A stretch of 64,000 bases of DNA from an uncultured Pseudomonadales bacterium (GCA_964455555.1 CAYVXV010000002.1:67677-131676), one strand, 5' to 3'; numbered from the stretch's first letter, positions 37,018 through 63,406 are shown. Numbers and translations are program-made. The notes: generated by a model from the letters alone, not told the origin.

Positions 37018-37023
37018 TACACT
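37018..37023 (+). promoter_or_regulatory. -10-like hexamer TACACT, 6 nt upstream of the ATG of 37030 (leaderless-type promoter)
   Basis: TGTACACT-taatct-ATG. The same architecture recurs at other operon starts. Confidence 0.3.
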
Positions 37024-37029
37024 TAATCT

Positions 37030-38307
37030 ATGGTTGTCAAATCCCTCTTTAAATCCCGCGGCCTCTACCAGTCCTTCATCATTATGGTGGGTTCTTTGGT
37101 GGCTTCCGGGCTCTCGGCTATTTCGCTTATTCTGATCACCCGTCAGCTGGGTCCAGCCAAGTTTGGCGAGTTCTCGGTTGGTTTTGCCATTTTGCTGATC
37201 TTGGTGCGCCTTAATGACCTGGGAATGACCAATGTGGTACAAAAATATGCTGCCAGGGAAGAGGACCGGGCCAAAGCCAACAAAATCTTTTCATTTGCCA
37301 CCCGGGTACGGCTCATCGGCACCCTAGTTATCTGGGTCTCGGGTTTGCTGCTGGCCCGACCTATTGCCGATCTGCTCAACTTCTCCGAACCGCTGATTAT
37401 TTATCTGGCTTTTTTCCTGAGCACCGGCATTTCCATGTACGAGCACATCCAGGCCATGCTGCAATCCCTGCACCGCTTTGGCCAGGCTGCCTGGATTAAT
37501 ATTCTGCAGGCAATTGCTAAGGTTCTCGGGGCAGCGGTGCTCTTCTTTACCGCTTCGCACGCCACAGTACCGATTTTTGCCTGGTATGTCTTTGCCCCTG
37601 CGCTGCCGCTTTTGTTCCTGCCCATTTACTTCCCTAAGTGGGTCAAGATCCGCCTCCAGGATAAATTCTCCGACCAGAAAAAACTGCTCACGGTGATGGC
37701 CGGCCACTCAGCGGTGGCTTTCATTGCTGCCGGTATTATTGAGAATATTGATGTCTTATTTGTTCAGCGCTATCTCAGTACCTATGAAGCCGGTTTGCTA
37801 GGTGGGGTTGGACGGGTGGCTTTGCTATTTTCTATCCTGGCTTATGCCCTGAGCTCGGTTTTAAACCCACGGGTGGCTAAATATACCAATGCCAAGGACC
37901 TCAGGGCTTTCTTTAAAAAAGCCTGGCTAATGGCAGGAGCTGCTATGTTGTTCCTGATTGCTTATCTGCCTTTTTCAAAACTGATCCTGCTTTATACCAT
38001 CGGCGAGCAATACCTACCCGGTCTCGATATCATGAATATTCTGGTGGCTTCATCACTTATGACGGTAGCAGTGGTGCCTTTTATTGCCTTTTTCTTTAGC
38101 ATTGACCGTCCCTGGTATTTTTCAGTCAGCGGCCTCACGCAGCTGGCAATAATCCTGGTTGGAAACGGTGTCTTTGTACCTATTTACGGTCTGGAGGCAG
38201 CTGCTTGGACCAGGCTTTTAGCCAGGGCATTTCTGTTTATTATGACCGCGGGCTTGGCGCTCTATTTTATGCGGGATATTAACGTCAAGAGAGGGGTAAA
38301 TGCTTAA
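37030..38307 (+). CDS. MOP-superfamily polysaccharide transporter (second Wzx-like flippase)
   Basis: 425 aa, about 12 TM helices, with ...ITRQLGPAKFGEFSVGFAI... the PST N-terminal motif. GC about 50%, in sharp contrast to the upstream wzx. Confidence 0.65.
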   Translation: MVVKSLFKSRGLYQSFIIMVGSLVASGLSAISLILITRQLGPAKFGEFSVGFAILLILVRLNDLGMTNVVQKYAAREEDRAKANKIFSFATRVRLIGTLVIWVSGLLLARPIADLLNFSEPLIIYLAFFLSTGISMYEHIQAMLQSLHRFGQAAWINILQAIAKVLGAAVLFFTASHATVPIFAWYVFAPALPLLFLPIYFPKWVKIRLQDKFSDQKKLLTVMAGHSAVAFIAAGIIENIDVLFVQRYLSTYEAGLLGGVGRVALLFSILAYALSSVLNPRVAKYTNAKDLRAFFKKAWLMAGAAMLFLIAYLPFSKLILLYTIGEQYLPGLDIMNILVASSLMTVAVVPFIAFFFSIDRPWYFSVSGLTQLAIILVGNGVFVPIYGLEAAAWTRLLARAFLFIMTAGLALYFMRDINVKRGVNA

Positions 38308-39898
38308 AAATCTGAGAGGTTTCTTTGACAAATATCCATGTGCATTATTTGCTCGCTTGGTATTGGGCTATTTGCTCCTAACCTTGCCAGCACTGCTATC
38401 AACCAATCATATTCTCTACAACTTAGAGCCATACCCTGATGGCCTCCTCTACGCACTCTCTGCCCGCAATGCTGCAGAGGGCAGGGGGCTGCAGCTGGTA
38501 AATGAGGACTCAGTCATCCCTATCTGGGTGCCGCCGCTCTATGCCTACTCACTTGTTCCCGGCTACGCACTATCCAGTTCTCCGAACATATATTACGTTA
38601 TAAATGTTTTATTTGGAGTGCTGGCACTTGTACTACTGATGTACCTAGCCAAGAAAATGTTTAAAAGCCCGCTGGCAGGGATAATTGCCGGGGGAGTTTA
38701 CCTGGCTCACGCTCTGGTGACCTGGGTAGCCAGTGTGCCCATGACCGAAAACTTGTCACCGCTGTTGCTGCTGATGGCTCTAACCGGTTTACTGCTGCCC
38801 AGAAGAAAAATCTGGCTGACGGTTTCCCTGGCTGGAATCCTTGGTTTATTTTTAACCCGCTATTCCGTGATCTTAACCGTCTTGATCCTGGCGGCTTTAC
38901 TGGTTGCGCGTTATGCTTGGGGCAAAAACCGTCAGCTTTATACCGTTTCAGCAATAGTAGGCCTTTTGGCCGCTTCGGCCGCAGCCCTGATACTTTCCAC
39001 TCTCAGCAGCCTGAATATATTTACTGTCGCCAGAAGCTTTGTCAGTGCCCTGATGAACGGCACCCAGTATTTCAACCTAGCATTTATCCCCAATAATTTT
39101 GTTCAATATTCTAAAAGCCTACTGGGCTTTCCCACTCAGTTTCTTTGGCAGAATAAGGCCTTTTCTTCAGCTGCCATCACCTTGCCCACACTAGGCTATC
39201 TTCTGCTTCAACTAAATCAAAGGGGTCTCAAGCAAAAATGGCAAAGTCTGGTAATTTTACTGGTTTTTCTATCCCAATACCCAATACTGTTGGTCTTTTA
39301 CACCGTTGATACCCGCTACAGCATTTTGGGCCTTCCGCTCTTGGCCTTAGGTGCAGCCGGTCTTTTTAGTTATCTCAAAAACAAGCATACTCTAAAGATT
39401 GCCGGAGTCGTCCTAGCCCTTATGCTGGGAATCCTAGGTGTAACCCAGCTACCGCTTTACCGCGAAATTTTAGCCAATAATATCCTGCACCGCTCTCAAG
39501 CTTGGCAGTATGAATCGATTCAGCACTTTAACAGTTTTTTTGAGACCAATAACAACCCTGAAGCTATACTTATCACTGCACTGCCGCCTCATTTAGTTGA
39601 AGCTTACCAAAACACTCCCTACAGGCTTTTGCCGCTTTCCGAAAAACAGGAATTTATGCAAAAGAAACTCGATGCCTGGGGCAGCGATGTTTTTTATGAA
39701 GACTTAACCCAAGAGTATGTCCTGAGGCTAGAGAGAGGAGAGCAAATATATATCTCCAATGCTTATATTACCCATCAACATGAAGTAGTTGAAGATTTTG
39801 AACGCTTGGGTCGGGAATTTAATTTAAAACAAGTTTCGGAGGGTTGTGATGGTGCCTGCAATCTTTATCTGCTTCAGCCGCTGCCTGTCCAAAATTAG
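38300..39898 (+). CDS. Polytopic membrane protein with a C-terminal soluble domain; possible GT-C-like enzyme
   Basis: 532 aa, about 12 TM helices. No DE motif; ...EPYPDGLLYALSARN... follows TM1. Its stop abuts the convergent bcp stop with a 1-nt gap. Confidence 0.45.
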   Translation: MLKNLRGFFDKYPCALFARLVLGYLLLTLPALLSTNHILYNLEPYPDGLLYALSARNAAEGRGLQLVNEDSVIPIWVPPLYAYSLVPGYALSSSPNIYYVINVLFGVLALVLLMYLAKKMFKSPLAGIIAGGVYLAHALVTWVASVPMTENLSPLLLLMALTGLLLPRRKIWLTVSLAGILGLFLTRYSVILTVLILAALLVARYAWGKNRQLYTVSAIVGLLAASAAALILSTLSSLNIFTVARSFVSALMNGTQYFNLAFIPNNFVQYSKSLLGFPTQFLWQNKAFSSAAITLPTLGYLLLQLNQRGLKQKWQSLVILLVFLSQYPILLVFYTVDTRYSILGLPLLALGAAGLFSYLKNKHTLKIAGVVLALMLGILGVTQLPLYREILANNILHRSQAWQYESIQHFNSFFETNNNPEAILITALPPHLVEAYQNTPYRLLPLSEKQEFMQKKLDAWGSDVFYEDLTQEYVLRLERGEQIYISNAYITHQHEVVEDFERLGREFNLKQVSEGCDGACNLYLLQPLPVQN

Positions 39899-39899
39899 C

Positions 39900-40343
39900 C
39901 TACTTAATTACTGTCCCTAAATAATCTAACACCTCTTTGGCATGATTATTGGGAGTAACCTTTTCCCAGACTTGGATAATCACTCCCTCGGGATCGATTA
40001 CAAAGGTACTGCGGATAACTTTTTCCTGCCAAACATCAAATGCTTTAATCAACTCCAGATCGGGATCAGACCAAAGCTCGAACCGAAGGCCCTGGTTCAG
40101 CCTAAATTTGGCATGAGACTCAACCGAGTCCCTGCTCACTCCAATCACCTCCACACCCAAATCCTCAAAACTGGAATGATAATCGCGAAAGGACTGAGCC
40201 TCCAGTGTACAGCCGGGTGTGTTGTCCCGGGGGTAAAAATACAGCACCACGTACTTGCCGCGTTTATGCATTAAGTTCACGCTATTGCCGTTGGAATCTT
40301 GTAGGTAAATGTGAGCTGGAGCCTGTTGTCCTGGTTGCAGCAT
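39900..40343 (-). CDS. bcp: Peroxiredoxin Bcp (thiol peroxidase, AhpC/TSA family)
   Basis: ...GKYVVLYFYPRDNTPGCTLEAQSF... carries the peroxidatic-Cys motif. ATG at 40343; the ORF-track start at 40367 is a TTG. Confidence 0.8.
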   Translation of the reverse strand: MLQPGQQAPAHIYLQDSNGNSVNLMHKRGKYVVLYFYPRDNTPGCTLEAQSFRDYHSSFEDLGVEVIGVSRDSVESHAKFRLNQGLRFELWSDPDLELIKAFDVWQEKVIRSTFVIDPEGVIIQVWEKVTPNNHAKEVLDYLGTVIK

Positions 40344-40358
40344 ACCTATTTTATAGCA
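40344..40358 (-). promoter_or_regulatory. Extended -10 TGcTATAAA immediately upstream (4-6 nt) of the bcp ATG; leaderless-type promoter
   Basis: The minus-strand sequence reads TGCTATAAAATAGGT-ATG. Confidence 0.35.
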
Positions 40359-43585: not shown

Positions 43586-43684
43586 GGTAGGGAAGTCTTT
43601 AAAATGCCTTTGTCCTAAAGGAGTATTCACGGTATGATTATATGGTTTAAATTTTTAAAGCTCAACTAGCGTTAATCTTTAAAC

Positions 43685-45160: not shown

Positions 45161-45168
45161 CTTTGTAT

Positions 45169-45174
45169 TAGAAT
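45169..45174 (+). promoter_or_regulatory. -10-like TAGAAT, 6 nt upstream of ATG 45181
   Basis: TGTATTAGAAT-gtagat-ATG. Confidence 0.3.
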
Positions 45175-47548: not shown

Positions 47549-48076
47549 GTGACCAAACACGCAACAACACTTATCAGCATCGACCCTGGTTATGACAGGA
47601 TCGGCTGGGCCATTGGCACACTAACCGGCACTAAATATATCTTGACCGCCTGCGGCTGCATTCAGACAGACCGCAAGGCAGAAATTTTCAGCCGCTACCT
47701 CCATTTTTCTGATGAGTTGTCTAAAATTATTCAAAAGTATTCTCCCTCTGCCGCTGCCATTGAAAGCATTTTCTTTTCCAAAAACCGCACCACAGCCATA
47801 AAGGTGAGTGAGGCGAGAGGTGTAATCATTGCAGCCTTGCTTCAAAACGGCGTCACCATTCATGAGTATAACCCCAGCGAAATAAAGCTTGCGGTTACCG
47901 GATATGGCAATGCAGACAAAATGGCCGTAGAAAAAATGGTGAGGATGCAAACGAATATAAAAGAGGGAAAAATTCTTGATGATGCCATCGATGCAATAGC
48001 TGTAGGTATGACTCATGCAGTTACTGCTCACATGCGCCAGGCCAAAGACGCCCTCAACAAAGCAAGTAGTTCGTAG
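47549..48076 (+). CDS. ruvC: Holliday junction resolvase RuvC (GTG start)
   Basis: ...LISIDPGYDRIGWAIG... is the RNase H-fold RuvC N-terminus; 175 aa; immediately upstream of ruvA and ruvB. Confidence 0.85.
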   Translation: MTKHATTLISIDPGYDRIGWAIGTLTGTKYILTACGCIQTDRKAEIFSRYLHFSDELSKIIQKYSPSAAAIESIFFSKNRTTAIKVSEARGVIIAALLQNGVTIHEYNPSEIKLAVTGYGNADKMAVEKMVRMQTNIKEGKILDDAIDAIAVGMTHAVTAHMRQAKDALNKASSS

Positions 48077-48088
48077 TATGCTTTCTTT

Positions 48089-49730: not shown

Positions 49731-49739
49731 TGTTACAAT
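49731..49739 (+). promoter_or_regulatory. Extended -10 TGtTACAAT, 6 nt upstream of ATG 49746 (leaderless-type promoter)
   Basis: TGTTACAAT-gttttt-ATG; no Shine-Dalgarno sequence. Confidence 0.4.
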
Positions 49740-51389: not shown

Positions 51390-53102
51390 ATGAGAAAAAA
51401 GACACAAAGCTGGATGAGCTGGCTGGACAATAATATATTACTGATTATCGGCGGCTTTCTTTTAGCCTTCATTCCTCTTTATCCAAAACTGCCTCTCTTT
51501 GAAGCTATCCCTGGTTACATTGTGCGGGTCAGAATTGAGGATGTACTGATTCTCTTTGCCTCATTCATCTGGTTTATTCAGGTGCTCAGAAAAAAAGTCT
51601 CCTGGAAGACTCCTCTTACTCCGGTAATCTTAGCCTATGCCGCAGTCGGCCTGCTCTCTACTATTTCTGCAGTCTTAGTTACCAAAACAGTACCCCTAAG
51701 CCCGCTTCATATCGGCAAGTCCCTGCTGCATTATTTCCGCTACCTGGAGTATTTTTCGCTCTTCTTTATCCTATCAGCAGCTGTCCGGAGAAAACGTGAC
51801 CTGAAAATCCTCCTTGTGGTAATCACTGTTACTTTGGTGAGTGTTGGCCTTTATGGCTATGGACAAAAATATTTCTACTGGCCGGTGTACTCAACCATGA
51901 ACCGAGAGTTCAGTAAGGGCATCCGCCTTTACCTAACAGAGCATGCCAGGGTTCAATCCACCTTTGGCGGCCATTATGACCTGGCAGCATACTTGGTAGT
52001 AATTTTGCCATTTTTACTATCGCTGGTTTACAGTATCAAAAACCGGAAACTGAGTTTCGCCACCTTCTTAGCCTTTTTTATTGGACTTTGGCTTTTAATC
52101 ACCAGTGCATCCAGAGCTTCGTTCGCTGCCTTTTTGGGCGGGGCAGTTGCAGTCGTTTTATTTTTTGCCTGGCAGAAAAGCAACCTAAAGAAAAAAATTT
52201 GGTATGCATTTTCAAGAATATTAGGCATTTTACTGCTCACATTTGTCATGTTAATTGCTTTTGGCGACGACATGTATGAGCGGTTGCTGCAAAGCCTTGA
52301 AGGCTACCCTGAGGTTCACAGCGCCTACATAGAGGTTGAAGATGTGGTCGAACAAATAGTCTACGATTATGTTCCTGCAGTTATTGATCTGCTCAGCTTT
52401 AAACCTGAAAAACCTGCCAATTCTCTCTCTACCGAAGAAGCTGAGATTCTGGTTGCCTCTGACCAAAGGCCTTCAGAGGTCAATCCCAAAGACACACCCA
52501 GCGACGTCTACGTAATTGTTCCCGATATTGTAAAAGTAGCTACAAAATCTGCAACTGGAGAGATAGAAATTGTTGAGGTAGAAACTGAACGGGTCTACTC
52601 GGAGAACGCCCTACGCTATGGACTTTCCTTGGCGATCAGACTGGATGAGCTCTGGCCAAAAGCCATTCAAGGTTTCATGCGCAATCCTCTTCTGGGCAGC
52701 GGCTACGCCACCCTCACAAAAGATACCGCCGGGCACTTTACAGAAGCCGAAAGCACTGACAACAACTACTTGAGGGTTTTGGGTGAAACCGGCCTGCTTG
52801 GATTTATTACCTTTTACGGCACAATTGCTTTTGCAATGTATTGGGCTTGGCTTCTCAATAAAAAATACTTCAAAAAGAACGCCTTATATAGTGCACTTGC
52901 AATAGGCTATTTGGGGGCTAGTATTGGGCTGCTTCTAAACGCCGTCTACATTGATGTTTATGCTTCGTCAAAGGTTGCGCTGGTTTATTGGGCTCTTACC
53001 GGAATTCTAATGGCCATAGCAATGACAGAGCTGCCAGAGTCAAAAAAAATGACAGACAATTTGAGTTTGCAGAATATTAAAAAATGGCTGCTGAAAAAAT
53101 GA
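51390..53102 (+). CDS. O-antigen ligase/polymerase-family (Wzy_C domain) polytopic membrane protein with a long C-terminal extension
   Basis: ...LITSASRASFAAFLGG... resembles the conserved SRG/SRAS loop of the O-antigen ligase family. About 10 TM helices plus a soluble acidic segment and two further TM helices. Confidence 0.5.
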   Translation: MRKKTQSWMSWLDNNILLIIGGFLLAFIPLYPKLPLFEAIPGYIVRVRIEDVLILFASFIWFIQVLRKKVSWKTPLTPVILAYAAVGLLSTISAVLVTKTVPLSPLHIGKSLLHYFRYLEYFSLFFILSAAVRRKRDLKILLVVITVTLVSVGLYGYGQKYFYWPVYSTMNREFSKGIRLYLTEHARVQSTFGGHYDLAAYLVVILPFLLSLVYSIKNRKLSFATFLAFFIGLWLLITSASRASFAAFLGGAVAVVLFFAWQKSNLKKKIWYAFSRILGILLLTFVMLIAFGDDMYERLLQSLEGYPEVHSAYIEVEDVVEQIVYDYVPAVIDLLSFKPEKPANSLSTEEAEILVASDQRPSEVNPKDTPSDVYVIVPDIVKVATKSATGEIEIVEVETERVYSENALRYGLSLAIRLDELWPKAIQGFMRNPLLGSGYATLTKDTAGHFTEAESTDNNYLRVLGETGLLGFITFYGTIAFAMYWAWLLNKKYFKKNALYSALAIGYLGASIGLLLNAVYIDVYASSKVALVYWALTGILMAIAMTELPESKKMTDNLSLQNIKKWLLKK

Positions 53103-54568
53103 AAAAGGTTTTCTTTAAGCACGGCTTGCTTTTGATTATTATCTTCGCCGCACTTGCGGTGCGGCTGTACCGCGTACATTATCCGCTTTTGGACTGGCAT
53201 AGTTGGAGGCAAGCCGACACGGCCTCGGTAACACAAAACTATCTGAATTACGGCATCGATCTGCTTAGGCCCACCTATCACGACCTGTCAAATATTCCCA
53301 ACGGTCTTGAAAACCCCGAGGGCTACCGGATGGTTGAGTTTCCGATTATTAATGCCGGCATTGCCAGTTTGATCAAAATATTACCAGCCCTGCCTTTAGT
53401 GCCAACCAGCCGAGTAGTTTCAATTCTCTTTTCCTTGGGAACTCTGGTATCTTTGTTTTTTCTTGTAAAAGATCTTTCCGGCAAGAAAGTGGCTTATATT
53501 ACAGCTGCTGTTTTTGCCTTTCTGCCTTATTCTGTCTACTACTCCCGAGTAATACTCCCCGAACCGCAGGTGCTTTGCTTCTCTGTATTCTCACTGATGG
53601 CTTTTAACAATTGGCTCAAGCACAAAAGAGCGAGTTGGTATATTTTATCGGTTATTAGCCTGGCTTTGGCATTTTTATTAAAGCCTTTTGTCGGTTTCTT
53701 TGCCCCGGCTTATCTGGCATTATCATGGTTTGCCTTTAAAAAGAAACTTTTCCTAAACCCATGGCTATATCTCTACAGCCTTCTAGCTGTAGCCCCATTT
53801 TTTGCTTGGAGAAACTGGATTACTCAGTTCCCTGAGGGCATCCCTTCCTCTGACTGGCTCTTTAACGGCAACGGCATCAGACTGCGGCCTGCTTGGTTTA
53901 GATGGCTGGGTTATGAACGCCTGACCAAACTAATGCTAGGGTTTACCGGCCTTGTTTTCATTCCCTTTGCTTTTGCCAAAGTGTCTAAAGATACCATTTT
54001 TTATATGGCTTGGTGGATCGGTGCCGCAGCATATTTGGTGGTTATAGCGACAGGCAACGTACAGCATGATTATTATCAGGCTCTGCTTATACCAATTCTT
54101 TCAGCTACAGTTGGAAAAGGGGTAGTGGCACTTTACCAGCAGGCTAAAAGTCTTTGGGAAAAAAAGTTTCCCCACCTGCGGCTCTATGGGCACTTGGCTT
54201 CATTCGCTCTGGTAAGCCTTCTTTTTATTCTGATGCTTTTTTTCAGTTGGCAGAACGTAAAAGGTAACTTTAATGTGAACAACTGGGAATACTACAGGGC
54301 AGGGCAAGTTGTTCAGGATAAAACACCTGAAGATGCATTGGTTATAGCCCCACAAATGGGTGATACGGCTTTTTTGTTCCAAACCAACAGAAAAGGCTGG
54401 CCGATAGGCGGAGGTATTGATGAAAAAATCCGCTTTGGAGCAACTCATTACGTCAGTGCCAGCTTTGATAAGGAGGCTCAGGAGCTTTCAGAAAAATATT
54501 TTGTAATTGAGAAAACAGAAGAGTACGTCCTCATTGACCTCACTACTCGTAGAGAGGCGCAACCATGA
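53099..54568 (+). CDS. GT-C fold membrane glycosyltransferase, GT39/GT83-like
   Basis: ...LLDWHSWRQADTASV... after TM1 is the conserved acidic loop. Polytopic. Start MKKVFFKH at 53099 (ATGA overlap with the upstream stop). Confidence 0.65.
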   Translation: MKKVFFKHGLLLIIIFAALAVRLYRVHYPLLDWHSWRQADTASVTQNYLNYGIDLLRPTYHDLSNIPNGLENPEGYRMVEFPIINAGIASLIKILPALPLVPTSRVVSILFSLGTLVSLFFLVKDLSGKKVAYITAAVFAFLPYSVYYSRVILPEPQVLCFSVFSLMAFNNWLKHKRASWYILSVISLALAFLLKPFVGFFAPAYLALSWFAFKKKLFLNPWLYLYSLLAVAPFFAWRNWITQFPEGIPSSDWLFNGNGIRLRPAWFRWLGYERLTKLMLGFTGLVFIPFAFAKVSKDTIFYMAWWIGAAAYLVVIATGNVQHDYYQALLIPILSATVGKGVVALYQQAKSLWEKKFPHLRLYGHLASFALVSLLFILMLFFSWQNVKGNFNVNNWEYYRAGQVVQDKTPEDALVIAPQMGDTAFLFQTNRKGWPIGGGIDEKIRFGATHYVSASFDKEAQELSEKYFVIEKTEEYVLIDLTTRREAQP

Positions 54569-55755
54569 AAGTTTTAATGCTGGCTCCTTATCTGCCTTAC
54601 CCCTTGTTGTCTGGCGGCCAAATACGCACCTACAACCTGCTTAAACAGCTTTCAAAAAACCACGAAATTACCTTATTTGCGCTTATTAAGCATGAGGAGG
54701 AGAAAGAGCATATAGCCGAGCTGGAAAAATACTGCACGAAGGTTCGCGTCTTTAAGCGGACCAGCAAGCCTTTTACCTTGGGCAATATTTTTAAAACTGC
54801 ATTTTCCAGATATCCCTTTCTGGTTATCCGCAATTATGTCCCAGAGGCTGTAAAAGCAATTAAGGAAGAACTTGCTTCAAAGCAATACGACCTAATCCAC
54901 GCGGAAACCTTTTACATGATGCCTCACATACCTGAGTCTTCCGTGCCGGTAATTTTGGTAGAACAAACAATAGAATATTTGGGCTATGAAAGTTTTGCAG
55001 AAAAAGCACTTTTCTTTCTAAAACCTTTTCTCAGATATGATATTGAGAAGATCAAGCGCTGGGAGCGCCACTACTGGAACCGCTGCCATACACTTATAGT
55101 CATGAGTCAAGAGGACAAGCGCTACCTGTCCAAACACGTTAAGAATCCGGGAAAAATTGAGGTTGTTGAAAACGGAGTTGACACCGATTGGTTTGATGAA
55201 AAAAGCCGCAATGAACCATCTGTGCCAACCTTGTTATCTGTCGGAACATTTAAGTGGCTTCCCAATGTAGAGGCTGTTGATTTCCTGGTCCAAAAAGTAT
55301 GGCCATTAGTTAAGGAAGCTTTGCCGGATGCCAAGCTACACATTGTAGGCAATGCACCTAGAAAAAGAGTGCTGGATTATCAAAAAGAGGATCCAAGCAT
55401 ACAAGTTCATGGAAGAGTAGAAGATATCAGGGATTCTTTCAACCAGGCGCATGTGCTGATAGCGCCGGTCTTCAGCGGCAAAGGCACACGCTACAAAATT
55501 CTGGAAGCAATGGCTTCGGGCACACCGATAGTCGCCACTAATATCGCGGTTGAGGGTGTAGGCGTAACTCAAAACAAACATGTGCTCATCAGTGATGAAG
55601 CCAAAGGGATGGCTGAGGCAGCAATAAAACTGATCAATAACCCAGAGAAACGCCTGGAGCTGGCTAATAATGGCCGGAAATTCATCCGCGAAAAATACGA
55701 CTGGTCACTTATCTCAAAAAAACTTGATACAATTTATCAGAATATCAACAACTAA
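54565..55755 (+). CDS. GT4 family glycosyltransferase
   Basis: ...MKVLMLAPYLPYPLLSGGQIRTYNL...; C-terminal ...IAPVFSGKGTRYKILEAMASGTPIVATN... Confidence 0.8.
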   Translation: MKVLMLAPYLPYPLLSGGQIRTYNLLKQLSKNHEITLFALIKHEEEKEHIAELEKYCTKVRVFKRTSKPFTLGNIFKTAFSRYPFLVIRNYVPEAVKAIKEELASKQYDLIHAETFYMMPHIPESSVPVILVEQTIEYLGYESFAEKALFFLKPFLRYDIEKIKRWERHYWNRCHTLIVMSQEDKRYLSKHVKNPGKIEVVENGVDTDWFDEKSRNEPSVPTLLSVGTFKWLPNVEAVDFLVQKVWPLVKEALPDAKLHIVGNAPRKRVLDYQKEDPSIQVHGRVEDIRDSFNQAHVLIAPVFSGKGTRYKILEAMASGTPIVATNIAVEGVGVTQNKHVLISDEAKGMAEAAIKLINNPEKRLELANNGRKFIREKYDWSLISKKLDTIYQNINN

Positions 55756-55756
55756 T

Positions 55757-56632
55757 ATGGCAAACAAACACGATCTTGAAATTATCATCACAACCTTTAA
55801 CAGTGAGTTTTGGCTGAAAAAAACTCTAACTACTTTAAAGGATTATTACTTAGACCATGCAAAATATGATGTCTCCGTCACAGTGGTAGACAATAATTCA
55901 GAGGACAACACGCTGTCCATGCTTAAAAAGGAGTATAAGTGGGTTAAGCTCATCGAGTTGGATGAGAATTTTGGCTTTGCTTTTGCCAACAACCGGGCGA
56001 TAGAAAGTTCCAAAGCGCGATACGTAATGTTGTTAAATTCAGATGTGGAATTTACAAACAGATCACGACTAGATGTTTTAATTGATTTTATGGACAAAAA
56101 CCCAAAGGCCGGAATTATCTCACCACGGGTTGAATTCACAGATGGCACTATCGACCCCGCCTGCCATCGGGGCGAACCAACTCTCTGGGCTTCCCTAACT
56201 TACTTCTCCAATTTGGAGTACTGGTTCCCAGAAAGCACATTGTTCGGCCGATATCACCAATATTATAAGGACCTAAAAGCAGTCCATTCCATAGATGCAG
56301 TGTCAGGAGCTGCACTGATTGCCAGAAAATCTGCTGTTGATGAGATTGGTCTATTAGATGAGCAGTTTTTTATGTATGCCGAAGACCTTGATTGGTGCAA
56401 ACGCTTCCGCGAAAGCGGATACGAAGTTATCTATCACCCGGAAGCTGTTGTCATCCATCATAAAAATAAATCTGGCATTAAAAGCACCTCACAGCAAATA
56501 GCAAAAAAGACCAGGAAACATTTCTATAACACCATGCTACAATACTATGACAAACACTATAAGAATAAGTATCCTCAATTCATGAGGAACCTGGTGCGTT
56601 ATTTATTAGTAATTAAAAAAGGAGCATTATAA
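55757..56632 (+). CDS. GT2 family glycosyltransferase
   Basis: ...LEIIITTFNSEFWL...VTVVDNNSEDNT...FAFANNRA...LLNSDVE... Start MANKHD at 55757, just after the upstream stop. Confidence 0.75.
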   Translation: MANKHDLEIIITTFNSEFWLKKTLTTLKDYYLDHAKYDVSVTVVDNNSEDNTLSMLKKEYKWVKLIELDENFGFAFANNRAIESSKARYVMLLNSDVEFTNRSRLDVLIDFMDKNPKAGIISPRVEFTDGTIDPACHRGEPTLWASLTYFSNLEYWFPESTLFGRYHQYYKDLKAVHSIDAVSGAALIARKSAVDEIGLLDEQFFMYAEDLDWCKRFRESGYEVIYHPEAVVIHHKNKSGIKSTSQQIAKKTRKHFYNTMLQYYDKHYKNKYPQFMRNLVRYLLVIKKGAL

Positions 56633-57102
56633 TGCATTCCCAAACCCACTTTGAAATTGAACAGCTGCGGATGAGAAATCTCGTTGACGGCGTGATGAGC
56701 ATCCTAGGCATCCTAGCGGCATTGCTGGTCGTAATCTTGCTGCCGTCACTTTTAGTTCGCTACGTTATTCCGCAAGAACAGCTTTTGACCGAACCCTTGA
56801 TCCTTGAACTAATTCCTGTTGTAGGTTTTGTATTATCCTTTGGCTACTTCCTTTATGCAGCTGTCAGATCATTCCAAAGAGCTGCCAGAGCAAGGGCTCT
56901 AGAAGCCAGTTTGGCTGGATATGGGGAAATGGTAAATGATTCTGAAATGATCAGCGAAGCTGAGCTGGCAGAACTGGAAGGCATTGTCGAAGAAGCACTT
57001 AAATCCAAATCTGCTAAAACAACCAGAAAAGCTGCAAGCGCAAAAAAAAGCACCAGAAAAACTCCGGCTAAAAGAACTGCCAGAGCTAGAAAAAGCAAAT
57101 AG
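56632..57102 (+). CDS. Small membrane protein (2 TM helices) with a Lys/Ala/Thr/Arg-rich, histone H1-like basic C-terminal tail
   Basis: TAATG overlap with the upstream gene. The tail reads ...KSKSAKTTRKAASAKKSTRKTPAKRTARARKSK. Last gene before a strong terminator. Confidence 0.5.
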   Translation: MHSQTHFEIEQLRMRNLVDGVMSILGILAALLVVILLPSLLVRYVIPQEQLLTEPLILELIPVVGFVLSFGYFLYAAVRSFQRAARARALEASLAGYGEMVNDSEMISEAELAELEGIVEEALKSKSAKTTRKAASAKKSTRKTPAKRTARARKSK

Positions 57103-57132
57103 TTTAATAAAAACTAAATAGCAATTTAACTT

Positions 57133-57170
57133 ACAGCCAGAGCTTCCCGCTCTGGCTGTAATGGTTTATT
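57133..57170 (+). terminator. Rho-independent terminator: ACAGCCAGAGC-TTCCC-GCTCTGGCTGT followed by a TTTATTATT tract
   Basis: Perfect 11-bp stem, 5-nt loop and a T-rich tail, read directly. The T-tract overlaps a TATTAT -10-like hexamer 8 nt before ATG 57181. Confidence 0.6.
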
Positions 57171-57180
57171 ATTAGAGAAT

Positions 57181-58281
57181 ATGAAAATCGGCATAGATTG
57201 CCGGCTGGCCGGCACCAAGCACGCTGGCATTGGCCGTTACATTGCAAACCTTCTCCAAGAATTAATCACTGAAAAAAATATCCACTGGGTGCTCTTTTTT
57301 TATGACAATCAACAGGCTGAGTCTGTACTCGGAAACCAACTCAAAGCTACCAACGTTTCCGTAGAGTATGTGCCTGTTAAACACTACACTTTTTCCGAGC
57401 AGATAAAGCTGCCAAAAATTTTTGCAAACAAGGAACTGGACTTGCTTCATGTCCCTCATTTTAATATTCCTGTGTTTTACCAGGGTAGGATGGTTGTAAC
57501 GATTCATGATCTATTGTGGCATCATCACCGTGGATTGCAGGTAACCACTTTGCCCTCCGGTCAATATTGGTTGAAGTACTTTTTTTACCGAACTGTAACC
57601 AGACAAGCAGTATTTAAGGCTGCCAAGGTTTTGGTTCCCGCTAAAGAAATTAAAAAAACTGTTACTCACTACTATCCGCACGCTCAATCGAAGATAGTGG
57701 TGACTACCGAGGGCGTGGAAGAAGTCTTCCTTAGTGCTAAAAGCAGTGTCAAAAGAGCTAAAAACACCTTGCTTTTTGTCGGCTCGCTTTATCCTCATAA
57801 AAATGTCAGGCTTATTATCTTAGCCCTTAAACTGTTGCCTGAGTACAAACTTCAGATTGTTGGCTCAAGATCTATTTTTCAGGAGGAGACAATGGAACTA
57901 ATCAGGGAAGCAGGTATTGCTGACCGGGTAGAATTCCTAGGCTATCTGGCAGACAGAGAACTGGCCAAGGTGTATTCCGCTACTACAGCCTTAGTGCAGC
58001 CGTCTTTTTCGGAAGGATTTGGTTTGACAGGGGTTGAGGCAATGGCGACCGGAACACCCGTTTTGGCTTCTGACATTCCAATATTTAAGGAAATTTATCA
58101 AGATGCCGCCATTTATTTTGACCCCTTCAGTACAAGCTCATTTGTAAAAGCAGTGAGAAAGCTGGAAAAACTAAACTTGCTTCAACACCAGAAAATTCTT
58201 AAAAAGGTGATAGAACCGTACCGCTGGAAATCTACCGCAGCCCAAACCACCGCCGCCTACCGCGAAGCGCTAGAGAAATAG
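57181..58281 (+). CDS. GT4 family glycosyltransferase
   Basis: ...LVQPSFSEGFGLTGVEAMATGTPVLASDIPIFKEI... (EX7E). Confidence 0.8.
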   Translation: MKIGIDCRLAGTKHAGIGRYIANLLQELITEKNIHWVLFFYDNQQAESVLGNQLKATNVSVEYVPVKHYTFSEQIKLPKIFANKELDLLHVPHFNIPVFYQGRMVVTIHDLLWHHHRGLQVTTLPSGQYWLKYFFYRTVTRQAVFKAAKVLVPAKEIKKTVTHYYPHAQSKIVVTTEGVEEVFLSAKSSVKRAKNTLLFVGSLYPHKNVRLIILALKLLPEYKLQIVGSRSIFQEETMELIREAGIADRVEFLGYLADRELAKVYSATTALVQPSFSEGFGLTGVEAMATGTPVLASDIPIFKEIYQDAAIYFDPFSTSSFVKAVRKLEKLNLLQHQKILKKVIEPYRWKSTAAQTTAAYREALEK

Positions 58282-58284
58282 GCC

Positions 58285-59511
58285 ATGCTCAAAAATCAGC
58301 CACAAGTTGCACTCGTATATGACAAAGTTAACACACCGTATGGCGGGGCTGAACATGTTCTACTAGCACTGAATGAGGCTTTTCCCAAATCACCCCTGTA
58401 CACAGCCGTTTATGATGCTAAAAGAGCCGCTTGGGCAAAGCCGTATAAGGTTGTACCTTCCTTTCTGCAAAAGCTTCCCGGAGCTAAAAGCCGCCACCAA
58501 TTTTTGGCAGCCCTAATGCCGCTAGCCTTTGAATCCTTTGATTTAGGTGGTTATGACATCGTAATCTCAGTAACTTCAGGAGAAGCGAAAGGCGTTTTAA
58601 CCAAGCCCAACCAACTTCACATCTGCTACCTGCTCACCCCGCCGCGCTATCTATACAGCCATCAGAAAGAATATTTGGACAGTTATTGGTTTTCACGCCT
58701 GCCTCTGCTGAGGCAAATTTCCGGATTGCTGCTGCGATATTTACAGTGGTGGGATCAGTCTGCAGCGCTCCGGCCTGATTTAATCATCCCAATTTCAAAT
58801 TTGGTGCGGGAGAGGGCTGAGGGCATATATAAAACGACCATTGAAAAACCAATCTATCCGCCGGTACCGGATATTCCGATGTCCAATGAGTCATTAGCTC
58901 TAAACTCATTTTATTTGGTTGCGTCAAGATTAGTGCCATATAAAAAAGTGGACATAGCTGTTTCATCCTGCAAAAAGCTGAATAAATGCCTAGTCATTGT
59001 CGGCGAGGGAACTGCCAATAAGAGCTTAATTGGCCTGGCTGGAGAAGCCGGTTCGGTCAGAAAGCAAAATGAAAGTTTAACCCGGTTTATTGAGCGCGCG
59101 CAGACGGAAAATAAAATAATACTTTTTACCAACAATTGTACAGAGGCGGAGCTAGGTCGCTTGTTCGCCAATGCGCGCGCCCTGCTGATGCCGGGGACTG
59201 AGGACTTTGGCATTACGGCAATGCAGGCAGGCATGATGGGCAAACCTGTGATTTTAACTGCGGACAGCGGTGCTGCTGAGCTGCTTAAAGAAGGGCGGCA
59301 TGCTATCTTTTTAAAGGAAGTAAGCCAGGCAGCTTTAGAAAATGCTATTCTTCGGCTCGAAAAATATAATTGGAATTCTGAATCCATGCGCAACAATGCA
59401 GAAAAGCATTCAGTCAAAAACTTTACTACCCAATTCTCAAAAAAAGTGTATGATTTGTTCATAACTTATCAAAATCCAGACCGAAAGGCTGTTTATGAGT
59501 TACCTAGATAA
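58285..59511 (+). CDS. GT4-like (GT-B) glycosyltransferase
   Basis: ...LLMPGTEDFGITAMQAGMMGKPVILTADSGAAELL...; GT-B topology. Confidence 0.65.
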   Translation: MLKNQPQVALVYDKVNTPYGGAEHVLLALNEAFPKSPLYTAVYDAKRAAWAKPYKVVPSFLQKLPGAKSRHQFLAALMPLAFESFDLGGYDIVISVTSGEAKGVLTKPNQLHICYLLTPPRYLYSHQKEYLDSYWFSRLPLLRQISGLLLRYLQWWDQSAALRPDLIIPISNLVRERAEGIYKTTIEKPIYPPVPDIPMSNESLALNSFYLVASRLVPYKKVDIAVSSCKKLNKCLVIVGEGTANKSLIGLAGEAGSVRKQNESLTRFIERAQTENKIILFTNNCTEAELGRLFANARALLMPGTEDFGITAMQAGMMGKPVILTADSGAAELLKEGRHAIFLKEVSQAALENAILRLEKYNWNSESMRNNAEKHSVKNFTTQFSKKVYDLFITYQNPDRKAVYELPR

Positions 59512-60598
59512 CACTTATGCTGTAGTTTTAGCTGGAGGTGGCGGTACCCGCCTTTGGCCTAAATCCAGAAAGCAAACCCCAAAGCAGTTCCTTAGGCTCA
59601 TGGGCAAAGACACCTTAATACAAATTACGGTAGCCAGAATTAGCAAACTAATTCCCTTCGAGCGCATTATTGTTGTTACAAACGAGCTCTACCTCGATGA
59701 AGTCGTCAAAGAACTTCCGGAGGTTCCCGAAAAAAACATTATCGCCGAACCGGAAAAGCGCGACACTGCACTGGCCATGCTGGTCGGGGCTCTCTATGCC
59801 AAAAGCATGAATAAGGATGCTGTTGTCATTAATTGTGCTTCTGACCACGTTGTCACCAATGAAAAAGAATTCATTAGGGTTATGAAGGCTGCAGCCGGAG
59901 TTGCAGCTGAAAATGGCAGCCTGGTTTCTGTTGGCATTACACCAAGCTACCCTGCAACCAGTTTCGGCTACATCAAAATCGGCGACGACCTTAAAAAGCT
60001 TAATGGCGGCCTGTCTTTATTTAAGGTTGACAGCTTTACAGAAAAACCAAAAGAGGCCACGGCCAGGGCATTTATCTCAACCGGCAAATACTTTTGGAAT
60101 GCCAACATGTACGTCTGGTCTTCTGATTCCTTGATCGAAGCCTTTAAAAAACATAAAAATGATTTACTGGAAAAAGCTAATCCACTTTTAGAAGCAAAGA
60201 GCAATGATTTTCTGTCTAAGCTGCCTGCAGTTTATAAAGATGCTGAAGCCATCTCTATTGATTACGCAATCTCAGAAAAAGCTGACAATCTTGTCCTCAT
60301 TCCCGGTGATTTTGGCTGGAATGACGTAGGAGATTGGAAAGTGGTCTATGACCTTGAGACCAAAAACCTCTCAGGCAATGCCATTTTCGGTGAAGGCACC
60401 GAGGTCCACGCCCTCTCAATCGAATCGCACAATAATCTCATACACACCAACGGCCGCCTGGTTGCCCTGGTGGGCATTAATGACCTCGTGGTCATCGATA
60501 CCGAGGAAATCCTCATGATCTGCCCCAAAAACAGGACGCAGGATGTGAAAAGGCTTGTTGATAGGCTGAAAGAAGAAAAAAGGCAGGAATACCTCTAA
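59495..60598 (+). CDS. manC: Mannose-1-phosphate guanylyltransferase (GDP-mannose pyrophosphorylase), nucleotidyltransferase domain only
   Basis: ...YAVVLAGGGGTRLWPKSRKQTPKQFL... is the ManC/CpsB signature. 367 aa with no C-terminal PMI/cupin domain. Confidence 0.75.
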   Translation: MSYLDNTYAVVLAGGGGTRLWPKSRKQTPKQFLRLMGKDTLIQITVARISKLIPFERIIVVTNELYLDEVVKELPEVPEKNIIAEPEKRDTALAMLVGALYAKSMNKDAVVINCASDHVVTNEKEFIRVMKAAAGVAAENGSLVSVGITPSYPATSFGYIKIGDDLKKLNGGLSLFKVDSFTEKPKEATARAFISTGKYFWNANMYVWSSDSLIEAFKKHKNDLLEKANPLLEAKSNDFLSKLPAVYKDAEAISIDYAISEKADNLVLIPGDFGWNDVGDWKVVYDLETKNLSGNAIFGEGTEVHALSIESHNNLIHTNGRLVALVGINDLVVIDTEEILMICPKNRTQDVKRLVDRLKEEKRQEYL

Positions 60599-60645
60599 AA
60601 AGTGTATGATATAGTGAAGATTATCTTTTTCGCTTAGACTTTATC

Positions 60646-61266
60646 ATGAATTACGACCAACAAAAACGCTTATTAGATATTATTGTGGCAAGCTTGCTTT
60701 TTGTTTTCTTTCTTCCCATTTGGGTGATCGTGCCCGTTCTCATTTACCTGGATTCAGGACTGCCAATAATTTTCCGCCACCGGCGGGTCGGTTTAAACGG
60801 CAGTGAATTTAATCTCTATAAATTCCGCTCGATGGTCCAGGGAGCTGATGAAATGCTGCACAACCATGATATGGAGCTGCTTAAAAAATTTAAAGAAAAT
60901 GATTGGAAAATCAAGGACGACCCCAGAATTACCCGGCTTGGAAAAGCCCTGCGCTCGCTGACAATTGATGAATTTCCTCAGCTATACAACGTCTTGAGGG
61001 GGGAGATGAGCATGGTTGGCCCGAGGGCTTACGTGAAAAGAGAGTTGAGTGAACAATCCAAGCGCTATCCGAAAACCCAACCTTATATCGAGGCTATTTT
61101 ATCTGTTAAGCCGGGAATTACCGGACCCTGGCAAACCAGCGGAAGAAACGAGGTGCCTTTTTCCAAGCGCGCTAAGATGGACGCCGAGTATGCCCGCACA
61201 CGGTCTATTTGGCATGATATCGTGATTCTTTTCCGAACTCCAAGGGCAATGATTTCCAAGTGGTAA
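60646..61266 (+). CDS. Small monotopic phosphoglycosyl transferase (PglC/WbaP C-terminal-type 'bacterial sugar transferase'); priming enzyme
   Basis: ...LLDIIVASLLFVFFLPIW..., ...NLYKFRSM... and ...MSMVGPRAY... are hallmarks of polyprenyl-phosphate hexose-1-phosphate transferases. Confidence 0.85.
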   Translation: MNYDQQKRLLDIIVASLLFVFFLPIWVIVPVLIYLDSGLPIIFRHRRVGLNGSEFNLYKFRSMVQGADEMLHNHDMELLKKFKENDWKIKDDPRITRLGKALRSLTIDEFPQLYNVLRGEMSMVGPRAYVKRELSEQSKRYPKTQPYIEAILSVKPGITGPWQTSGRNEVPFSKRAKMDAEYARTRSIWHDIVILFRTPRAMISKW

Positions 61267-61288
61267 CCTTCATAGGTTAATCCTTTTT
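61264..61288 (+). terminator. Weak intrinsic terminator candidate: TAACCT-TCAT-AGGTTA then ATCC-TTTTT
   Basis: 6-bp AT-rich stem overlapping the stop codon, followed by a T5 run. Confidence 0.3.
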
Positions 61289-61345
61289 GGCCTGGTTATT
61301 CCGAATAGTTGGCTAAACTGATAGCTTCCGCATAACTTCTGTTTT

Positions 61346-61354
61346 TGCTATACT
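61346..61354 (+). promoter_or_regulatory. Extended -10 TGcTATACT, 9 nt upstream of ATG 61364 (leaderless-type)
   Basis: TTTTTGCTATACT-gtacttctg-ATG. Confidence 0.4.
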
Positions 61355-61363
61355 GTACTTCTG

Positions 61364-63352
61364 ATGATTAATCTAGACAGATTCAAGCCATCATTCAAAA
61401 GAAAGCCTGCTTCCAGCGTTGATGCAAACCCCATTGCAGCTGAACAAACAGTTGCAACAGAACCAACTGTACAGTTGCCTTGGTTTAAAAGTATGAAAAA
61501 ATGGGAGCTTGGTTTGATAGTTGGTCTGCTGATCTTCACAATTCTGACAGCTGCAGTCGGTGCCTACACCTATGCGGTCGGTATGGAGCTCAAAACCCAG
61601 GCCCAAGTTTCCAGGGCACTCGCTCAACAGGCATATGACACCTTTAAAGGCCAAAATCTGCCTGAGTCAGAAGCCAGGCTGATTGAACTAGACCAGGAAT
61701 TAGCCAATGTCACAGCAAGCTACAAAAAACTATCTTTCTATCGATATGTGCCGGTTGTACGGAAATATTACATTGATGGCGAGCATGGTCTAGCAGCTGC
61801 TGCAGCTGGTTTATCAGCCGGCAAAAAATCATTAGCTGCCATCACTCCTTATGCTGACGTCCTAGGTTTCACTGGTGAGGAATCCTTTGAAGGAGGCACT
61901 ACCGAAGACAGAGTGAAGGTTTTATTGGAAACGTTGGATAAAGTTACCCCTATTCTTGAGGATATATCAGCAGATCTCCAGATAGTTGAATCAGAACTGG
62001 CCGAAATAAGCCCCCAGGATTATCCGGAATCTTTCCGAGGCATAGCTATCCGTGAGTATATTATCCAAGCTCATGACCTCAGCAGCGGGGCAGTGTCTGC
62101 GGTAACTGAATACCGACCGGTGCTTGAGGAACTTCCCAAGGTAGCGGGTGCAAACGGTGAAACCAAAAAATATGTAATTTTATTTCAAAATGACAACGAA
62201 CTAAGGCCAACGGGGGGCTTTTTAACAGCTTACTCGATTATTAATGTCACTGACGGCAAAGTAGAAGCAGAACGTTCTGATGATATTTACCAACTAGACC
62301 AAAAGTTCCGCAAAAACGAGCCAATTCCTGAAAAACTCGGCCGCTACCTGACAACGGAGCGGCGCTGGAATATCCGTGACATGAACATCTCTCCGGACTT
62401 TAAAGACAGCATGGATATTTTCTACGAACACTATCAACAAATCCCAGGAGAACCTGCAGACCAAATAGACGGCATTATTGCTGTAGACACAGAATTTCTT
62501 ACCAGCCTGATTAAAGTCTTGGGGCCGGTGCAGGTGCCCGGCTATGGCACTTTCACTGCAGAAAACGACCCAAGATGCGACTGCCCGCAAATCATCTATG
62601 TACTTTCTGAAATTATTACCAGGCCAACTCCTTTTATAAGAGAAGACCGCAAAGGCATATTGGGCCCGCTGATGAGCGCCACTTTAGCCAAAGCATACGC
62701 CGCACCCAAACAGCAGTGGCCTGATCTTTTCGGGACTGGCTTTGCCAGTATTAGGAACCGCCACGCCCAGTTTTATTTTCTTGATGAACAAGCTCAGAAC
62801 GCAGCAGAGGCTGCCAATGCCGCCGGAAGAATGACTGTTGAGGAAGACAGTGACTTTCTCGGCATAATCAATGCCAACTTGGGCGGTGCAAAATCAAACT
62901 TGTTCATCACCTACGATGTAAACCAGGAAGTCAGTGCACCTGAAGACGGCCTCATTACTAAAACCATCGAGATCACCTATAAAAACAACCGGAGGGCGGA
63001 CAACTGCAACTTAGAGGCGGGCTTGCTTTGCCTCAACTCCACTCTGCGGGACTGGACTAGGATCTATGTCCCTGAAGGCTCAGAACTAATTAGTGCTCAA
63101 GGCTTCACTCAAGAACCTGAGAGCTATGAAGAGAATGGCTTTACTGTCTTTGACGGCTTCTTTACCCTGGAGCCGCTGGCGCAAGCCAGGCTAAGGCTAA
63201 CCTACAAAGTTCCTTACAATGACACAGCAAACTACCAGTTGCTGATGTGGAAGCAGGGCGGCATTGAGTCATATTCGACACTCATAGACGTTACCGGTGG
63301 GCAGGAGCAAATGCTGGTCGAATACGATCTGAAGTATCAGACGCCCTTTTAA
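61364..63352 (+). CDS. Large N-terminally membrane-anchored, predicted extracytoplasmic protein (662 aa); function unknown (possibly DUF4012-like)
   Basis: A single TM helix (LGLIVGLLIFTILTAAVGAYTYAV) after about 50 residues, then a long hydrophilic domain containing ...RPTGGFLTAYS... Follows the priming transferase. Confidence 0.5.
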   Translation: MINLDRFKPSFKRKPASSVDANPIAAEQTVATEPTVQLPWFKSMKKWELGLIVGLLIFTILTAAVGAYTYAVGMELKTQAQVSRALAQQAYDTFKGQNLPESEARLIELDQELANVTASYKKLSFYRYVPVVRKYYIDGEHGLAAAAAGLSAGKKSLAAITPYADVLGFTGEESFEGGTTEDRVKVLLETLDKVTPILEDISADLQIVESELAEISPQDYPESFRGIAIREYIIQAHDLSSGAVSAVTEYRPVLEELPKVAGANGETKKYVILFQNDNELRPTGGFLTAYSIINVTDGKVEAERSDDIYQLDQKFRKNEPIPEKLGRYLTTERRWNIRDMNISPDFKDSMDIFYEHYQQIPGEPADQIDGIIAVDTEFLTSLIKVLGPVQVPGYGTFTAENDPRCDCPQIIYVLSEIITRPTPFIREDRKGILGPLMSATLAKAYAAPKQQWPDLFGTGFASIRNRHAQFYFLDEQAQNAAEAANAAGRMTVEEDSDFLGIINANLGGAKSNLFITYDVNQEVSAPEDGLITKTIEITYKNNRRADNCNLEAGLLCLNSTLRDWTRIYVPEGSELISAQGFTQEPESYEENGFTVFDGFFTLEPLAQARLRLTYKVPYNDTANYQLLMWKQGGIESYSTLIDVTGGQEQMLVEYDLKYQTPF

Positions 63353-63389
63353 CCGCCTTTTTAGCCGCCCTTTTAGCCTGACGTTCTCC

Positions 63390-63398
63390 TGATATACT
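63390..63398 (+). promoter_or_regulatory. Extended -10 TGaTATACT, 8 nt upstream of the recO ATG (leaderless-type)
   Basis: CCTGATATACT-aattctgt-ATG. Confidence 0.4.
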
Positions 63399-63406
63399 AA
63401 TTCTGT

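Follow-up and report, generated by a model that had tools for sequence, protein, structure and literature searches.

Where do the transcripts of the bacterium behind this 64,000-nucleotide stretch of DNA (GCA_964455555.1 CAYVXV010000002.1:67677-131676, recorded as an uncultured Pseudomonadales bacterium and called the window here, over its whole length) begin? An initial annotation had pointed to -10-like hexamers, often with the upstream TG of an extended -10 element, a few nucleotides before the start codons of at least six operon-leading genes between positions 37018 and 63406. From these it had proposed widespread leaderless initiation, that is, messengers that begin at or next to the ATG and carry no Shine-Dalgarno (SD) sequence. 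Our analysis supports this proposal. We consider it highly probable that the window stems from a Microgenomates-type bacterium in which promoters of sigma-70 type, placed directly against the start codon, drive about 40% of operon heads and give leaderless, SD-less mRNAs. The observations that carry this interpretation are the motif itself, its position, its promoter-type flanks, its specificity for operon heads, the exclusion of SD sequences from the same genes and its conservation in orthologues.

The 60 nucleotides (nt) upstream of all 58 open reading frames (ORFs) of the window were inspected, and box statistics were calculated on 57 genes. Hexamers were scored with a simple weight matrix and counted if they reached at least 4.5 bits at a spacer of 4–10 nt to the start codon. 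Operon heads were defined as genes that are divergent or separated from their upstream neighbour by 15 nt or more. Such a box preceded 13 of the 57 genes, compared with 4.5 ± 2.0 in 2000 dinucleotide shuffles (maximum 12, P < 0.0005), and 10 of the 22 operon heads, compared with 2.3 ± 1.4 (P < 0.0005). The earlier impression that the pattern was too regular for chance thus held up. All six elements first reported were recovered at their positions and spacers, as were the two described as weaker, TATTAT with 8 nt before 57181 and TAGACT with 5 nt before 60646. About eight further start-adjacent boxes had escaped notice, among them those before 2510(-), 5772(-), 34667(-), 36934(-), 43630(-), 43685(+) and ruvA (48089). 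Across the whole window TGNTANNNT was not enriched (151 matches versus 167 expected), so that the signal is purely positional, lying next to start codons. The individual sites, together with two contrasting cases, are as follows.

37018..37023, plus strand: TACACT, 6 nt before ATG 37030 (Polysacc_synt flippase), which leads one side of a divergent gene pair
36941..36949, minus strand: weak extended -10 element TGaTAAGTT (3.2 bits), 6 nt before ATG 36934 (FkbM methyltransferase), the divergent partner of 37030(+)
40350..40358, minus strand: TGcTATAAA, 6 nt before ATG 40343 (bcp, peroxiredoxin), alternatively read as TAAAAT at 40353-40348 with 4 nt
43637..43642, minus strand: TATAAT, 6 nt before GTG 43630 (NAD-dependent epimerase/dehydratase)
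43673..43678, plus strand: TAATCT, 6 nt before ATG 43685 (PMT_2 glycosyltransferase), back-to-back with the promoter of 43630 in a 54-nt intergenic region
45169..45174, plus strand: TAGAAT, 6 nt before ATG 45181 (GT4 glycosyltransferase), in a 20-nt gap after the upstream gene
48074..48079, plus strand: TAGTAT, 9 nt before ATG 48089 (ruvA), overlapping the end of ruvC
49731..49739, plus strand: extended -10 element TGtTACAAT, 6 nt before ATG 49746 (hexapeptide-repeat transferase downstream of ruvB)
57131..57161, plus strand: terminator-like hairpin with a 13-bp stem that closes the upstream unit, 19 nt before ATG 57181
57167..57172, plus strand: TATTAT, 8 nt before ATG 57181 (GT4 glycosyltransferase)
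60635..60640, plus strand: TAGACT, a weak case, 5 nt before ATG 60646 (Bac_transf sugar transferase)
61346..61354, plus strand: extended -10 element TGcTATACT, 9 nt before ATG 61364 (DUF4012 protein)
63390..63398, plus strand: extended -10 element TGaTATACT, 8 nt before ATG 63407 (recO)
2517..2522, minus strand: TATAAT, 6 nt before ATG 2510, outside the span of the initial annotation
5782..5787, minus strand: TAAAAT, 9 nt before ATG 5772, also outside that span
34672..34677, minus strand: TATAAT, 4 nt before ATG 34667, with an overlapping TAATAT that gives a 7-nt spacer
19617..19625, minus strand: contrast case, extended -10 element TGaTAGAAT, 26 nt before ATG 19590 (510-aa gene), with an AAGGA SD sequence in between
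56619..56624, plus strand: contrast case, AAGGAG SD sequence, 7 nt before ATG 56632 (internal gene)

The protein encoded from 34667(-), with the N-terminus MKIISLVGARPQFIK, presumably resembles a UDP-GlcNAc 2-epimerase. As a separate observation, the 60-nt intergenic region at 9417-9476, from which 9416(-) and 9477(+) diverge, contains TATAAT, TATACT and TATTAT hexamers in close succession. Their spacers are 12 and 27 nt, none falls at 6–9 nt, and no SD sequence is present.

Among species-representative genomes, the nearest relatives of the RuvB protein were all Patescibacteria (UBA924, Gottesmanbacteria, Daviesbacteria; 60–72% identity). Named homologues of RecO belonged to Woesebacteria, Pacebacteria, the 'Microgenomates group' or the 'Patescibacteria group', and the NCBI lineage of Gottesmanbacteria runs from the Patescibacteria group to the Microgenomates group. 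Judged by these relatives and this lineage, the source organism is a bacterium of the candidate phyla radiation (CPR) of Microgenomates type (Patescibacteria). Several records of metagenome-assembled genomes (MAGs) labelled 'uncultured Pseudomonadales' or 'Gammaproteobacteria' (L001, L012 and L072; P0022 and P0097) resemble Patescibacteria in gene content and are syntenic with the window, and for these reasons their labels look wrong. As for the window's own proteins, RuvB is recorded solely on a contig of 1.9 kb, SRR9016293 contains an identical RuvB, and NCBI lists the exact RecO on a 165-kb contig. With protein identities to the closest relatives of 72% for RuvB, 56% for RuvA and 72% for RecO, an alignment of promoters at the nucleotide level was impossible, and orthologous upstream regions were compared instead.

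Three sets of loci were processed with one crude pipeline (longest ORFs, greedy non-overlap, first start codon): related genomes (L001-L007), related metagenome loci found via RuvA (L082-L161, 689 kb), and Firmicutes/Chloroflexi controls from a RuvB scan (L009-L080). A -10 hexamer at a spacer of 4–9 nt was found at 20% of the 51 heads of the related genomes and at 31% of the 330 heads of the metagenome loci, which corresponds to ratios of 2.1 and 3.6 relative to positions 12–53. The controls reached 6% of 739 heads with a ratio of 0.8 and showed no spacer peak. Within the control set, L012 and L072 were the only loci with at least three start-adjacent -10 matches. In the metagenome set the counts for spacers from 0 to 12 nt were 9, 8, 7, 6, 6, 1, 32, 21, 20, 21, 11, 11 and 11, i.e., the counts drop to one at 5 nt and jump abruptly at precisely 6 nt, over a background of about 5–7. 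Nearly all long related loci contributed start-adjacent matches. The scan of start-adjacent hexamers against controls that the initial annotation had suggested thereby yielded an approximately 3-fold enrichment at 6–9 nt from starts across the window and related Patescibacteria loci totalling about 0.8 Mb. The boxes were furthermore specific for operon heads, occurring at 31–38% of heads compared with 9–10% of internal genes.

The same geometry emerged from a test that is free of gene calls, in which 698 TGnTAnnnT sites of the related loci were related to any downstream ATG that opens an ORF of at least 100 codons. Such an ATG was located 6, 7, 8, 9 and 10 nt past the site in 22, 18, 9, 12 and 7 cases, respectively, while there were 0–3 cases at distances below 6 nt and about 2–3 beyond 10 nt; controls were flat. 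We also considered that the peak at 6 nt might be an artefact of in-frame stop codons (TAA or TAG at -12) under longest-ORF calling. This was rejected as the main cause, since the corresponding bump in the controls amounted to at most 14 of 739 heads, spacers of 7–9 nt were equally enriched, and TATAAT, TATACT and TACAAT supply no stop codon in the frame concerned.

To characterize the boxes, 130 start-adjacent hexamers were aligned on the hexamer and those flanks that had played no part in their selection were read out. At positions -3/-2, T and G occurred in 52% and 50% of the cases, compared with 30% and 21% at 11,154 equal-scoring hexamers elsewhere in these loci. At -23 to -21, which corresponds to a 17-nt spacer, T, T and G reached 55%, 46% and 38%, compared with 30%, 31% and 18% at the controls. 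These positions correspond to the TG of an extended -10 element and, at the canonical spacing, to the TTG of a -35 element. In the window, the TGn extension was found at five sites (49731, 61346, 63390, 40358(-) and 36949(-)). The start codons of the 130 anchored heads were ATG, GTG and TTG in 84%, 9% and 7% of the cases, compared with 67%, 10% and 23% in other heads, and all six genes named in the initial annotation begin with ATG. A further feature of the start region is a T at position -1 before the ATG, present in 51–53% of genes of the related loci and the window, heads and internal genes alike, compared with 32–33% in controls; G at this position accounted for only 5–8% (L001-L007, L082-L167 and the window). 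For heads, this T would fit the preference of start sites for a pyrimidine at -1 and a purine at +1, which leaves its occurrence at internal genes unexplained.

SD sequences were virtually excluded from the genes with boxes: an SD core was present in 0 of 9 such heads in the window and in 2% of the 130 in the lineage, whereas internal genes carried one in 37% (window) and 14% (lineage) of the cases. The three SD examples cited earlier, at 16645, 28235 and 19590(-), are all present. The accompanying claim that internal genes carry SD sequences was right in direction, yet too broad in extent, as only 37% of the internal genes of the window have the core, and in many the start overlaps the preceding gene's stop by 4 or 1 nt (ATGA or TAATG). 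The SD sequence AAAAAGGAGCA before the internal gene 56632 was conserved in six of six syntenic loci, and 19590(-), with its SD sequence between the -10 element and the ATG, is by its layout a leadered transcription unit. Leadered and leaderless modes would hence appear to coexist. Over all related Patescibacteria loci, an SD core was found at 14–18% of genes compared with about 47% in controls, and the frequency of G at -12 to -8 (unanchored) was 0.13–0.24 compared with 0.35–0.44. This low use of SD sequences extends to the internal genes of the related loci, for which translational coupling or an unstructured A-rich leader are candidate explanations.

Gene by gene, the upstream regions of orthologues in syntenic relatives were then checked for a start-adjacent -10 element. 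The box of 49746 was kept in 13 of 14 orthologues (as TATACT, TACAAT, TATCAT or TATGAT at 6–10 nt), although the rest of the upstream region could not be aligned. It was likewise kept in all four orthologues of 37030 (TATCAT, TAAAAT or TAAAGT at 6–7 nt) and in 10 of 14 orthologues of the PMT_2 gene 43685 (TATCAT, TATGAT, CATAAT or TACAAT at 6–9 nt). For the DUF4012 gene 61364, four of five syntenic relatives carried TTGCTAGAAT, TTGCTATACT, TGTTATACT or TGATATACT at 6–7 nt before the ATG, and the count becomes five of five if the second ATG in L164, which follows a TATACT by 7 nt, is taken as the start. Three of five relatives had TATACT, TATATT or TATAGT 6 nt before recO (63407), and 11 of 19 orthologues of the epimerase gene 43630 had a -10 element 6–10 nt from their own ATG. 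At the GT4 gene 57181, three of five close syntenic relatives retained the arrangement of a hairpin followed by TATAAT at 6–9 nt. Hairpins comparable to the one at 57131-57161 precede the orthologue in L164 and L167, and more distant orthologues have an AAGGTGG SD sequence instead. A start-adjacent -10 element was found in 17 of 62 orthologues of ruvA, and others have an AAGGAGG SD sequence, which suggests that the two solutions to initiation interchange in evolution. In these orthologues (L082-L160) the -10 element is embedded in the end of ruvC, and the form with the SD sequence is an internal gene following ruvC. Where boxes persist in orthologues, they keep their place beside the ATG although the surrounding sequence has diverged. 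Among the six cases originally named, comparative support was thus obtained for 49746, 61364, 63407 and 37030. Conservation failed for 45181, bcp (40343) had no orthologue in any related locus examined, and none was available for the FkbM gene 36934(-).

These results can be explained by the following model. An RNA polymerase with a sigma-70 factor would use a -10 hexamer of the type TAnnnT, often with the TG of an extended -10 element and a weak TTG as -35 element, and the hexamer would end 6–9 nt short of the start codon. As RNA polymerase normally begins its transcript about 7 nt beyond the final T of such a hexamer, a spacer of 6 nt would set the +1 position on the A of the ATG, and anything shorter would cost the transcript its start codon. 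The transcript would begin at this A or 1–3 nt before it and have neither a 5′ untranslated region nor an SD sequence. Its first gene would be translated through direct recognition of the 5′-terminal AUG by the ribosome and initiator tRNA, and downstream genes of the operon would rely on SD sequences or on stop/start overlaps, i.e., translational coupling. From the distance of 6–9 nt between -10 element and ATG we infer both where exactly transcription starts and that translation is leaderless. Spatial constraints agree with the model. The 54 nt between the starts 43630(-) and 43685(+) and the hairpin 19 nt before ATG 57181 leave no room for a promoter plus a leader. In addition, a tRNA scan of the whole window returned no tRNA gene and a scan of the whole window for Rfam families returned no match, so that no riboswitch or leader RNA accounts for the intergenic regions.

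Several findings weigh against this interpretation. About 4 of the 13 boxes in the window are to be expected by chance, and the gene starts in the related loci come from the crude longest-ORF caller, which was applied to the controls as well. At 34667 and 40343, the alternative readings with a 4-nt spacer do not fit initiation at the A of the ATG. The site at 60646 is weak, given its 5-nt spacer and a good -10 element in only one of five syntenic relatives. None of 16 orthologues has the box of 45181, so that this box could be a chance match or a lineage-specific internal promoter. The start of the epimerase gene is uncertain, the choice being between GTG 43630, 6 nt after a perfect TATAAT, and ATG 43585 (MDYFYKKTILVTGAAGFIG). 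Matches to the -35 element are poor at the individual promoters of the window (1–4 of 6 positions), and a generic scan of 36-64 kb for -35/-10 consensus pairs did not rise above shuffles. We attribute the latter result to the type of promoter, since such a scan is underpowered for -10 or extended -10 promoters with a weak -35 element. A terminator scan of the same 36-64 kb yielded nothing above shuffles except the strong hairpin at 57131-57161.

The alternative that survives best, while still improbable, is that the AT-rich box acts at the level of the mRNA, as a non-SD ribosome-binding or unstructured enhancer element of the kind known as 'group B' in Bacteroidetes, in transcripts that start further upstream. 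Enrichment of A and T upstream of starts is indeed general here, and the weakness of SD signals (core at 14–18% compared with about 47% in controls, G at most 0.24 at -12 to -8) means that many genes must have some non-SD mechanism. According to PMC6028130, however, the group-B signal precedes operon heads and internal genes, in contrast to the marked preference for heads seen here. Moreover, a TAnnnT hexamer preceded by TG at a distance of one base and by TTG at 17 nt bears the features that sigma-70 recognizes in DNA, and a cut-off at exactly 6 nt fits the start-site geometry of RNA polymerase, not the spacing of a ribosome.

A start-abutting promoter would also be mimicked if the boxes were real promoters but the annotated starts were wrong, with true starts further downstream behind ordinary short leaders. 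As a general account we regard this as rather less probable again. It is plausible for single genes. In most orthologues of 43630, the first residue corresponds to codon 15–16 of the window gene, that is, ATG 43585. For the ORF called from 55670, the N-terminus MANKHDLEIIITTFN and the GT2 domain show that the true start is ATG 55757; read from 55670, it would reach 86 nt into the upstream gene, and ATG 55757 lies 1 nt after the upstream stop codon. The conservation of TGATACAAT at 55725 reflects its coding for the C-terminus of the upstream protein, not a promoter. For the candidates at large, the annotated starts are well anchored. Pfam domains begin at residues 1–16 in bcp, recO, ruvA, the GT4 genes at 45181 and 57181, and Bac_transf. 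In bcp, the AhpC-TSA match begins at residue 4, which fixes the start codon, and in recO the RecO_N match begins at residue 5, with homologues of the same length (180–181 aa, 100% coverage). The N-termini MKIGIDCRLAG, MKLGIDITPV and that of the protein from 34667(-) align with their orthologues from residue 1–2. For most candidates the first 10 or so codons offer no alternative in-frame start, and in no candidate is such a start preceded by an SD sequence. Mis-annotation may thus affect one or two genes and is not general.

That TAnnnT hexamers merely turn up without function near starts in AT-rich intergenic DNA is hardly credible: although TGNTANNNT stays at background window-wide, shuffles still give 4.5 matches per 57 genes, and the boxes at 45181 and 60646 are not conserved, this view is contradicted by the excess in genes and heads over shuffles, by a peak that begins sharply at spacer 6 with spacer 5 depleted and is missing from controls, and by the enriched TG and TTG flanks and the conservation of boxes in orthologues.

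Turning to the remaining content of the window, it is dense in genes for polysaccharide synthesis and glycosylation (flippases, PMT_2, GT2 and GT4 transferases, ManC, Bac_transf, DUF4012) at an overall GC content of about 42%, and also encodes ruvC-ruvA-ruvB, bcp and recO. Part of the polysaccharide cluster (24000-36000) has a GC content of 0.32–0.38, compared with 0.42–0.46 in its flanks, and may be a glycan module that is variable or was gained by horizontal transfer. At 53084-63949, the gene order is PMT_2, GT4, GT2, a 160-aa hypothetical protein, GT4, GT4, a ManC-like NTP transferase, Bac_transf, DUF4012 and recO. This order is kept in five relatives (L162, L164-L167) at only 58–67% RecO identity, and in L162, L165 and L166 the block from PMT_2 to recO is followed by an aminoacyl-tRNA synthetase and then the mraZ/mur division cluster. 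From its synteny, the region looks like a core Microgenomates locus for glycosylation of the cell envelope.

The proposed architecture has a close counterpart in 'group C' of the GeneMarkS-2 classification (Lomsadze et al. 2018, PMC6028130). Group C is characterized there by a Pribnow box 6–8 nt from the first gene of an operon and SD sequences elsewhere, comprises genomes with 25–50% leaderless operons, and was mainly assigned to Actinobacteria (90%) and Deinococcus-Thermus (97%). The window, with about 40% of heads, and the related loci, with 31% at spacers of 4–9 nt, resemble this group and share the spacing of 6–9 nt. Those phyla are mostly high-GC, unlike the Patescibacteria/Microgenomates genome considered here, which in addition shows much weaker use of SD sequences at the remaining genes and a frequent TGn extension. 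The same source cites leaderless transcriptomes mapped by differential RNA sequencing (dRNA-seq) in Mycobacterium tuberculosis, M. smegmatis, Streptomyces coelicolor, Corynebacterium glutamicum and Deinococcus deserti. They share with the architecture proposed here a TANNNT -10 element directly upstream of an ATG or GTG at which transcript and protein both begin, no SD sequence, and leadered next to leaderless genes. Those maps rest on start sites and proteomics, the present case on sequence statistics and comparative footprinting, and the organisms differ in lineage, GC content and genome size, the relatives used here being on contigs of 0.5–1.4 Mb.

Extended -10 promoters of E. coli and Gram-positive bacteria are similar in that the TG lies one base upstream of the hexamer and the -35 element is weak or dispensable. 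Classical extended -10 promoters drive leadered mRNAs, unlike those described here, which abut the start codon. Bacteroidetes of group B share the low SD usage and the AT-rich region upstream of starts, but their motif, which also precedes internal genes, is not a promoter, whereas the box found here is head-specific and has promoter flanks. We found no publication linking leaderless mRNAs to CPR, Patescibacteria, Saccharibacteria, Parcubacteria or Microgenomates, the supplementary genome lists of PMC6028130 lying outside this comparison. Part of the Parcubacteria has lost the anti-SD motif (PMC9297842), and a promoter study with 188 start sites of Nanosynbacter lyticus TM7x (site set from PMID 35975994) does not discuss leaders (PMC12641261).

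The mechanism itself is not new: the architecture is known from group C, and what is new is the lineage, Microgenomates/CPR. Leaderless mRNAs are an established mode of expression that is unevenly distributed among organisms, and CPR ribosomes lack uL30 and often bL9. We lean, with some reserve, towards the view that Microgenomates, and perhaps much of the CPR, constitute an unrecognised leaderless-rich clade in which about one third of transcription units start at the AUG and SD sequences play a minor role even inside operons. If so, the stripped-down ribosomes of these bacteria would be linked to a simplified, possibly ancestral, form of initiation, and gene finders based on SD sequences would have introduced systematic start-codon errors into CPR annotations. 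Confirmation would add a large uncultured radiation of mid-to-low GC content to Actinobacteria and Deinococcus-Thermus as leaderless-rich groups, and would supply a rule, TGnTAnnnT 6–9 nt before an ATG, for locating starts and operon boundaries in CPR MAGs. It would also provide ready promoter/start modules for the genetic tools under development for CPR and bear on how their reduced ribosome initiates translation.

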